From: Escherichia coli
GTDB lineage: Bacteria; Pseudomonadota; Gammaproteobacteria; Enterobacterales; Enterobacteriaceae
NCBI RefSeq assembly: GCF_003334315.1
Contig: NZ_QOWR01000033.1
Length of the DNA stretch: 50,012 nt
Reading direction: 5' to 3' (one strand)
The position numbers were made by a program, and so were the translations under genes. Of this stretch, positions 19,561-20,052 are shown piece after piece. A model generated the notes under the pieces. It was not told where the DNA came from. It searched no databases and worked only from the letters and a program-made list of their open reading frames with translations. Within the stretch, counting starts at the first letter, position 1. Every line of letters begins with the position of its first letter.

Positions 19561-19580
19561 TACTGTAAATATAAACAGTG
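19561..19580. promoter_or_regulatory. LexA (SOS) box tactgtaaatataaacagtg
   Basis: CTGT-N8-ACAG palindrome read directly, about 40 bp upstream of the 19620 ORF. Confidence 0.6.
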
Positions 19581-19619
19581 GTTATGCATACAGTATTATT
19601 TGGTGTCATAGGAGGAAAG

Positions 19620-19808
19620 ATGCAGGACTATTTTTTGGAGTCTTTGAAGCTCCAGCGCATTGATTTTTTTCTTAAGCTTGTAGCGGCTAGTGAGTGTAGT
19701 GATGAAGAGAAGGGGCTGGCTCTGCAGTGGGTTTCTGAACTGACAGATGAACTCATGGCAAAAATCAGAAGCCACGAATACAACCGCTCAATGGATGTCA
19801 TCAGCTGA
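19620..19808 (+). CDS. Small SOS-controlled protein, possible Tum-like antirepressor N-terminal module
   Basis: aggagg RBS before ATG at 19620; directly downstream of the LexA box; function inferred. Confidence 0.45.
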   Translation: MQDYFLESLKLQRIDFFLKLVAASECSDEEKGLALQWVSELTDELMAKIRSHEYNRSMDVIS

Positions 19809-19818
19809 GGTGACTTTT

Positions 19819-20052
19819 ATGCGCATTGAAATAATGATCGATAAAGAGCAGAAGATTAGCCAGTCTACCCTGGACGCCCTTGAATCCGAGCTTTACCGCA
19901 ATCTGCGCCCCCTGTATCCCAAAACGGTAATTCGCATTCGCAAAGGTAGCTCTAACGGTGTGGAACTAACCGGACTGCAACTGGATGAAGAAAGAAAACA
20001 AGTGATGAAAATTATGCAGAAGGTGTGGGAGGACGACAGCTGGCTGCATTAA
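19819..20052 (+). CDS. DinI-family protein
   Basis: MRIEIMIDKEQKISQSTLDALESEL...WEDDSWL resembles DinI; gagg RBS. Confidence 0.75.
   Translation: MRIEIMIDKEQKISQSTLDALESELYRNLRPLYPKTVIRIRKGSSNGVELTGLQLDEERKQVMKIMQKVWEDDSWLH

Follow-up and report, generated by a model that had tools for sequence, protein, structure and literature searches.

The SOS operon region of a 186/Fels-2-type P2-like prophage of Escherichia coli, with a split tumA-tumB arrangement and a predicted double LexA operator

A small open reading frame (ORF) that lies between a LexA box and a DinI-like gene in Escherichia coli prophage DNA raises the question of what the small protein is and whether the module could switch the prophage to lytic growth upon DNA damage. 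[quoted passage not shown] Since the late 1980s, 186-type P2-like prophages have been known to be SOS-induced through a LexA-controlled Tum antirepressor, and the module in the window is very probably the known SOS operon of a 186/Fels-2-type P2-like prophage, with tum split into tumA and tumB and with TumA being an antirepressor that acts on CI.

The source prophage is of the 186/Fels-2 P2-like type and positions 19538-20090 of the window represent its SOS operon region in the split tumA-tumB form. A gpA-type replication endonuclease of 804 aa ends at 19468 and the SOS module is found directly downstream (an intergenic region followed by the ORFs), i.e. at the p95-tum site of phage 186, which agrees with the preliminary description in placing it where the 186 antirepressor is encoded. 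A 641-bp region shares 96-98% identity with Fels-2 and numerous other P2-like phages (Peduoviridae) from E. coli, Klebsiella and Salmonella. The gap between tumA and tumB is 10 nt, with tumB in a different reading frame and preceded by its own ribosome-binding site. Sequence entropy rises sharply past 20055, where homology to relatives ends and variable cargo starts, and a GC-rich stem-loop located directly after tumB is a probable partial terminator or operon end. Stems of other sequences are present at this position in SEN8, SopEphi, Klebsiella phi4.1, Yersinia MLG42 and PSP3, and phage 186 has the partial terminator t95a at the equivalent place. The features of the region are as follows.

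19538..19543, plus strand: -35 hexamer TTTACA of the tum promoter (p95 equivalent), assigned by comparison
19559..19566, plus strand: -10 region (two alternatives), overlapped by LexA box 1
19561..19580, plus strand: LexA box 1 (distal), TACTGTAAATATAAACAGTG, 23.8 bits by weight matrix
19576..19595, plus strand: candidate LexA box 2 (proximal, degenerate left half), CAGTGGTTATGCATACAGTA, 15.6 bits, overlapping box 1 by 5 bp
19610..19615, plus strand: ribosome-binding site AGGAGG of tumA, read directly and invariant in 82 loci
19620..19808, plus strand: tumA (ATG at 19620, stop codon ending at 19808), encoding a 62-aa acidic two-helix protein
19797..19814, plus strand: short hairpin at the tumA/tumB junction, covering the stop codon of the former and the Shine-Dalgarno sequence of the latter, from a terminator-like scan, low confidence
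19819..20052, plus strand: tumB, encoding a DinI-like protein of 77 aa that corresponds to PSP3 TumB and to the C-terminal half of 186 Tum
20061..20090, plus strand: GC-rich stem-loop GCCCCCA...TGGGGGC

Promoter and LexA operator of the tum operon

The sequence CTGT-N8-ACAG occurs a single time in the window, at box 1, but this bare motif is not significant, being expected 0.61 times per window and found in at least one copy in 47 of 100 shuffles. Every 20-mer of the window was therefore scored with a symmetrised weight matrix derived from about 18 LexA sites of E. coli. The three best 20-mers started at 13338 (23.9 bits), 19561 (23.8 bits) and 19576 (15.6 bits), against a maximum of 17.0 bits over 200 dinucleotide-shuffled versions of the window, so that box 1 is real by sequence statistics, as expected from the canonical operator first noted there. 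The distance from the end of box 1 to the tumA ATG is 39 bp, in line with the figure of about 40 bp given at the outset. A pattern covering both boxes, CTGT-N9-CAGTGG-N8-ACAG, matched exactly once in the window, at 19563-19593 (0.01 expected). These data suggest that the tum operator is double, consisting of two overlapping LexA boxes at 19561-19595, with box 2 as a putative site of LexA occupancy.

The operator overlaps a conserved sigma-70 promoter made up of TTTACA and TATACTGT, as in the annotation of 186 p95. TTTACA corresponds to the annotated -35 of 186 p95, and its distance to the box is kept in SEN8, SopEphi, Klebsiella phi4.1 and Yersinia MLG42 despite differing spacers. The -10 can be read either as TATACT (19559-19564, 15-bp spacer) or as TACTGT (19561-19566, 17-bp spacer); the annotated -10 of 186 p95 is TACTGT, the left half-site of its LexA box, and TATACTGT is conserved in all relatives examined. 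A consensus promoter scan chose another candidate, TAAACA-16-TATTAT at 19572-19599, which the operator covers too.

Conservation was further assessed in 82 near-identical loci (98-100% identical, from a six-sequence family alignment), a set that informs on individual sites and not on diversity. The -35 TTTACA as well as the CTGT and ACAG of box 1 were invariant, and the half-sites of box 2 nearly so, with variation at the centre of its spacer (19586-19588) and just downstream. All eight transition combinations occur at 19586-19588, and a hypermutable or diversifying spacer was considered for these positions but rejected; their entropy (0.75-1.2) equals that of the most variable gpA sites and they are therefore read as unconstrained.

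Outside this near-identical group, a strong LexA box (20.2-29.4 bits) was found at the equivalent promoter position upstream of 20 out of 20 Tum/TumA homologues, covering 12 phage loci and 8 metagenomic loci, the latter being the loci of seven diverse family representatives found by representative search. In these 8 representative loci the LexA box was by far the best-scoring 20-mer of the locus, and the distance from the box to the downstream start codon is 35-48 bp in the single-box loci. The comparative data thus support SOS control as a likely trait of the whole Tum/TumA family. The double box appeared in seven promoters of the Fels-2/HS type with diverged flanks (the window, Fels-2, 813R9, SEN8, SopEphi, Klebsiella phi4.1 and Yersinia MLG42), whereas only a single box was present in the 186, PSP3 and ESSI-2 types, the Yersinia enterocolitica type and seven of seven metagenomic representatives. 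A MAFFT alignment paired the 186/PSP3 box with box 2, a pairing that was rejected on promoter logic; since the TACTGT half-site of box 1 forms the -10, this box is taken as the positional counterpart.

TumA, TumB and the CI repressor

The upstream ORF, preceded by the strong ribosome-binding site AGGAGG as previously indicated, encodes 62 aa and not the 63 initially reported. It is labelled as a hypothetical protein in RefSeq and is hypothetical or unclassified in PHROGs, Pfam and NCBIfam, and searches of Pfam, NCBIfam and PDB sequences with TumA returned nothing. In profile comparisons TumA matched PHROG 698 (E-value 6e-38), PHROG 8554 (1e-8) and PHROG 1993, the PSP3 TumA family (0.002), and residues 1-70 of 186 Tum matched the same three families (PHROG 698 at 6.7e-6, 8554 at 3e-12 and 1993 at 2e-23). 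This was further supported by an hhalign comparison of the window-type alignment with an alignment of the 186, PSP3 and Yersinia sequences, giving 94.6% probability and an E-value of 7e-8 with residues 5-43 aligned to residues 5-43 in register. BLASTP gave no alignment between TumA and 186 Tum, and the homology thus rests on profiles. A common motif, LQRI/LERI ... C ... EK/DR-x-ALxW-x-x-E, is nevertheless visible by eye through the intermediate sequences of ESSI-2, ESSI2_ev015 and Yersinia 06.16-2. The AlphaFold model of TumA is a helical hairpin (residues 2-23 and 28-61, pLDDT 86), for which a Foldseek search against the PDB gave no match below E=1 and only generic helical hairpins. Taken together, tumA probably encodes the antirepressor half of a split Tum. 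The suggestion of an antirepressor is thereby strengthened by the profile homology to the N-terminal part of Tum, while that of novelty does not hold, the tumA/tumB pair being known from PSP3 (PMC3121763).

A profile search of 1.84 billion representatives retrieved 182 family members. Among the best 150 of these, 124 are of 80 aa or less and only 3, all of them 186-like, carry a DinI-like C-terminus. Most family members are thus small free-standing proteins, and fusion to a DinI part as in 186 Tum is exceptional. Having a DinI-like domain or gene next to the antirepressor part, as in the window, is not universal in the family; LexA-controlled tumA homologues without a dinI-like gene occur in ESSI-2, ESSI2_ev015, Yersinia 06.16-2 and the P0017-, P0041-, P0044- and P0102-type loci. 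These lineages argue for the small protein, and not the DinI part, as the essential effector.

The assignment of the second gene to the DinI family was confirmed. TumB (77 aa) matched PHROG 189, "RecA filament binding protein DinI", with an E-value of 1.5e-29 and the E. coli DinI structure 1GHH over residues 1-75 with an E-value of 2.7e-6, and showed 41% identity to residues 71-145 of 186 Tum (E-value 3e-24). It is a full-length member including the C-terminal acidic helix and the W-E-x-x-D-x-W motif, and its orthologues in related loci carry PF06183. Against the NCBIfam DinI equivalog model TumB scored 42.7 bits, below the cut-off of 111, and it is therefore regarded as a member of the DinI family but not as an orthologue of chromosomal DinI. 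From its family membership, TumB probably acts on RecA filaments and may modulate their co-protease activity. The short hairpin at the tumA/tumB junction has an equivalent stem of different sequence in Klebsiella phi4.1 and weak ones in SEN8 and SopEphi; it is itself weak and may possibly couple translation of the two genes.

The putative target of TumA is encoded elsewhere in the window.

13704..14273, minus strand: cI, encoding a 186-type immunity repressor

CI shares 33% identity with 186 CI, 41% with Fels-2 CI and 100% with the CI of the E. coli HS prophage, and CII shares 69% identity with 186 CII, consistent with the 186-type CI and CII recognized in the preliminary description. That CI is the target of TumA would follow from the biochemistry of 186 Tum and CI (Shearwin 1998, as cited in the accessible text of PMC3121763 and PMC7708051). 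Direct CI binding is described in that text for 186 Tum only, which sequesters CI reversibly, with p95 being re-repressed as the SOS signal decays (PMC7708051). The TumA proteins of the window and Fels-2 are identical at 60 of 62 positions, although the CI proteins share only 41%; in CI, the N-terminal ~70 residues are well conserved and the remainder has diverged. It may be speculated that TumA recognizes the conserved N-terminal DNA-binding domain of CI.

Induction of the E. coli HS prophage and competing explanations

The closest experimental evidence comes from the P2-like prophage of E. coli HS, which shares TumA, TumB, CI and CII with the window at 100% protein identity. Between rimO and ybjL, the HS locus and the window are colinear, with the prophage at the same insertion site adjoining rcdA, and the P2-like structural and lysis ORFs of the window, from int to ogr, are the same colinear set as in HS; the gene order also agrees with that annotated in other E. 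coli prophages. The operators differ by 1 nt, in the box-2 spacer, and gpA is identical at 785 of 805 positions. The cargo 3' of tumB consists of two hypothetical genes in HS and of DarT/DarG together with PADLOC Hp1-3 in the window.

In a 2024 preprint (Phollow; PMC11195241), an in-frame deletion of tum in E. coli HS abolished mitomycin-C-induced lysis and virion foci, as did a lexA(Ind-, G85D) allele. The window TumA is HS WP_001154431.1, the gene deleted as tum. The primer junction of this deletion, ATAGGAGGAAAGATG|TGAGGTGACTTTTATGCGCATTG, matches window positions 19608-19622 and 19806-19828 exactly, so that the tum of the preprint is the 62-aa ORF, and the deleted segment corresponds to 19623-19805. 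Both tumA and cleavable LexA have hence been shown by others, with identical proteins, to be required for induction by mitomycin C (PMC11195241). The predicted induction by DNA damage thus stands, and the comparison of wild-type and lexA(Ind-) strains after mitomycin C, proposed earlier as a check, had in effect been carried out in HS. As lexA(Ind-) blocks the whole SOS response, however, its effect is no proof that the tum operator is the relevant site.

A switch can be proposed on this basis. In the uninduced lysogen, LexA dimers on the double operator (19561-19595) would cover the -10 as well as the predicted transcription start at about 19572-19575 and keep the operon off. Upon DNA damage, activated RecA would trigger self-cleavage of LexA and the operon would be transcribed. 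TumA would then bind CI non-covalently and keep it from binding its operators, allowing the early lytic promoter to fire and lytic growth to follow. TumB would be co-expressed and probably act on RecA filaments, shaping how strong the SOS signal is or how long it lasts, without itself derepressing the phage. Within this scheme, direct binding of TumA to CI, LexA on both boxes and the role of TumB are drawn by analogy with 186.

Three other explanations were weighed against this reading. It is unlikely that TumB, or TumA and TumB jointly, is the real induction effector, with TumA as an accessory and the HS deletion acting through lowered tumB expression. The junction hairpin could couple translation of the two genes, so that the deletion could also lower TumB expression, both Tum parts are contained in one polypeptide in 186, and complementation data for the deletion were not found in the portion of the PMC11195241 text that was searched; the deletion keeps the tumB ribosome-binding site intact. 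Against a primary role for TumB, several lineages have a LexA-controlled tumA homologue and no dinI-like gene, the DinI fusion is limited to 3 of the best 150 family representatives, and the 186 annotation describes the DinI-only Tum products as merely modulating. Furthermore, PSP3 antirepressor activity is reported to map to the upstream gene, and in Gifsy prophages deletion of the dinI homologues had no significant effect on induction (PMC3121763).

Still less probable is an operon that acts as an SOS-responsive "moron", tuning the SOS response of the host with no role in induction in this strain, as in a defective prophage. Many prophages do carry LexA-controlled DinI-like genes that show no clear phenotype (PMC3121763), and the P2-like Salmonella prophage BTP5, which has a tum homologue, gave no detectable infectious phage with or without mitomycin C (PMC7067206). 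However, the identity of TumA, TumB, CI and CII to those of the inducible HS prophage and the colinearity of the structural and lysis ORFs from int to ogr speak against a defect of this kind, and the tumA frame and operator are conserved over hundreds of loci, which points to functional selection. A chance match to LexA in an AT-rich intergenic region, with the operon controlled by other means, would find some support in the frequency at which CTGT-N8-ACAG is expected in the window, but this origin of the box is effectively refuted by the shuffles and the comparative data: the complete 20-mer outscores every shuffle by a wide margin, all 20 homologous loci have a strong upstream box despite divergent flanks, and the box overlaps the conserved promoter exactly as annotated for 186 p95.

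Of 5426 complete E. coli genomes, 1125 contain the module, B and C strains among them, and it was further found on at least 561 IMG/VR contigs. The value of the analysis is one of annotation, with a small gene present in about one-fifth of complete E. coli genomes being identified as tumA. Knowing that the gene is tumA makes it possible to predict the P2-like prophages that DNA-damaging antibiotics would induce, such prophages carrying defence cargo, e.g. DarTG.

The int promoter and comparison with known systems

The best-scoring 20-mer of the window (23.9 bits) falls outside the tum operon, within a candidate second SOS arm.

13333..13361, minus strand: int promoter TTGACA-17-AAAAAT, whose spacer is taken up by a LexA box (13338-13357)

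This promoter scored 10/12 in the promoter scan. The segment is identical in HS and present in 704 E. coli genomes, and 813R9 and KP12 have a diverged version with a different upstream gene in which the box and the hexamers are kept. In the Fels-2/HS-type lineage, LexA could conceivably control the prophage at two points, tumAB and int, as a small internal SOS regulon, a proposal that is tentative and somewhat doubtful at present. If true, a colicin-style double operator would set a high and late threshold for the host-killing tumAB step, and the int-promoter box would couple the supply of integrase to derepression. By colicin logic, a double box would fit a gene that commits the host to lysis. 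No earlier description of the double operator or of the int-promoter LexA box was found in the accessible literature, and a prior report of the double operator may exist elsewhere. A text search of the literature for TumA/TumB gave unrelated matches only.

Phage 186 provides the reference for the module, with an SOS operon p95-tum-orf97 in which p95-tum is directly 3' of gene A, as here. It shares with the window a LexA box over the -10 of a sigma-70 promoter and a switch of the CI/Apl/CII type. In contrast to the two genes in different frames of the window, 186 tum encodes one 146-aa polypeptide with internal starts; its annotation includes shorter in-frame products, down to a 77-aa DinI-like piece, "modulating SOS induction". 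There is a single LexA box in 186 as opposed to two overlapping ones in the lineage of the window, and the window has variable defence cargo instead of an orf97 homologue.

The two-gene form of tum is shared with PSP3 and Fels-2, in both of which the split has been reported (Lemire et al. 2011, PMC3121763), along with antirepressor activity in the upstream gene of PSP3 (PMC3121763). PSP3 tumA is annotated as "similar to 5' end of 186 tum; UV induction of prophage" and tumB as "similar to dinI and 3' end of 186 tum". PSP3 TumA belongs to another subfamily (PHROG 1993, compared with PHROG 698 in the window) and its gene has a single LexA box. Fels-2 is closer, with ~97% DNA identity to the window over the module and the genes STM2728 ("hypothetical") and STM2726.1 ("DinI family, similar to TumB [PsP3]"). 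However, cI abuts int in Fels-2 without a separate int promoter, whereas the window has one.

The layout of the double operator is that of the ColE1 cea operator, in which two 20-bp LexA boxes are offset by 15 bp, share 5 bp and have the core CAGTGG. The ColE1 operator CTGTATATAAAACCAGTGGTTATATGTACAG (L007 5063-5093) and the window operator CTGTAAATATAAACAGTGGTTATGCATACAG have this same layout, and the Fels-2 operator differs from that of ColE1 at 3 of 31 positions; no similarity was found between the ColE1 and tum promoters in the flanks beyond the operator. In colicin promoters, two LexA dimers are bound at the double box and basal expression of the lethal product is suppressed (PMC2994835). 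The ColE1 product is a toxin whereas that of the window is an antirepressor, and co-operative LexA binding at the tum promoter is putative.

The Gifsy prophages (GfoA/GftA) also have a LexA-repressed operon with a small antirepressor and a DinI homologue, and their repressor is inactivated by binding and not by cleavage (PMC3121763). They differ from the window in that the gene order is reversed (dinI first) and in being lambdoid prophages with unrelated repressors. In comparison with these systems, the module in the window is one already known from 186, PSP3 and Fels-2, real but ordinary, to which the putative double operator and the candidate LexA-controlled int promoter would bring modest, testable additions on the induction threshold and on excision.

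A LexA-like box in a candidate int promoter

The top-scoring LexA-like 20-mer of the entire window in the weight-matrix scan (23.9 bits) was TACTGTATGTATAACCAGTG, found at 13338-13357 on the minus strand, where it occupies the 17-bp spacer of a candidate promoter for the prophage integrase gene:

13333-13361, minus strand: near-consensus candidate int promoter (TTGACA-17-AAAAAT), immediately 5' of int

The arrangement of this predicted LexA box suggests that integrase expression is under SOS control. The promoter and box are identical in the E. coli HS prophage, and the segment carrying them was found in 704 of the 5426 complete E. 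coli genomes surveyed. Phages 813R9 and KP12 retain a diverged version of it, with a different gene upstream. Two weaker LexA-like 20-mers were also seen in the tail-fibre region (38757-38887), at 38868 (14.3 bits) and 38757 (10.4 bits), both below the 17.0-bit maximum obtained in 200 shuffles of the window.

Variation at the tum operator and the cargo genes beyond tumB

Across 82 otherwise near-identical prophage copies, positions 19586-19588, at the centre of the spacer of LexA box 2 upstream of tumA, and 19594-19600, where the 5' leader begins, vary freely and chiefly by transitions, with all eight R-Y-R combinations represented at 19586-19588. Hypermutation at these positions was considered and rejected, their diversity being no higher than that of the most variable sites of gpA; since the two are equal, the variability is read as an absence of constraint.

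At the other end of the operon, homology among related prophages breaks off no more than a few bases from the stop codon of tumB (20055-20130 in the window, and the equivalent positions in the related loci L004 and L008-L011). A stem-loop follows tumB, with a stem sequence that varies from phage to phage, and in several related phages a conserved motif, GGTTGAACAACGAG...GGCGAGGCGTTAG, lies 3' of it. This region may serve to terminate the operon, or it may mark a recombination boundary of the cargo hotspot. The T-run of the stem in the window is weak, so that SOS-driven read-through from the tum operon into the cargo genes is possible. These genes are:

20520-22077: DarT/DarG, a low-GC gene pair for a toxin-antitoxin and anti-phage defence system, in the variable cargo site 3' of tumB
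22739-25641: another three cargo genes, located after DarG and before the portal gene, with matches to Hp1, Hp2 and Hp3, candidate defence proteins of PADLOC

DarT and DarG matched PADLOC at 1.3e-36 and 1.4e-80, respectively; against NCBIfam, each scored under its equivalog cut-off. The pair has a promoter-like site of its own at 20421-20448. Hp1, Hp2 and Hp3 matched at 7e-64, 2e-47 and 1.5e-8. In E. coli HS their slot holds a pair of unrelated hypothetical genes, and in another E. coli strain it holds an AIPR-family gene.

The ORF separating cI from int

A small ORF keeps the cI transcript and int apart in the window:

13497-13688, minus strand: 63-aa ORF between cI and int

Its product, annotated as hypothetical in E. 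coli (WP_001513672.1), has a signal-like hydrophobic N-terminal stretch and six cysteines, and gave no match in PADLOC. This separation from the cI transcript is a possible reason for int having a promoter of its own. Fels-2 and 186, in contrast, have no counterpart of the ORF, and they lack the int-promoter LexA box because in both phages cI abuts int.
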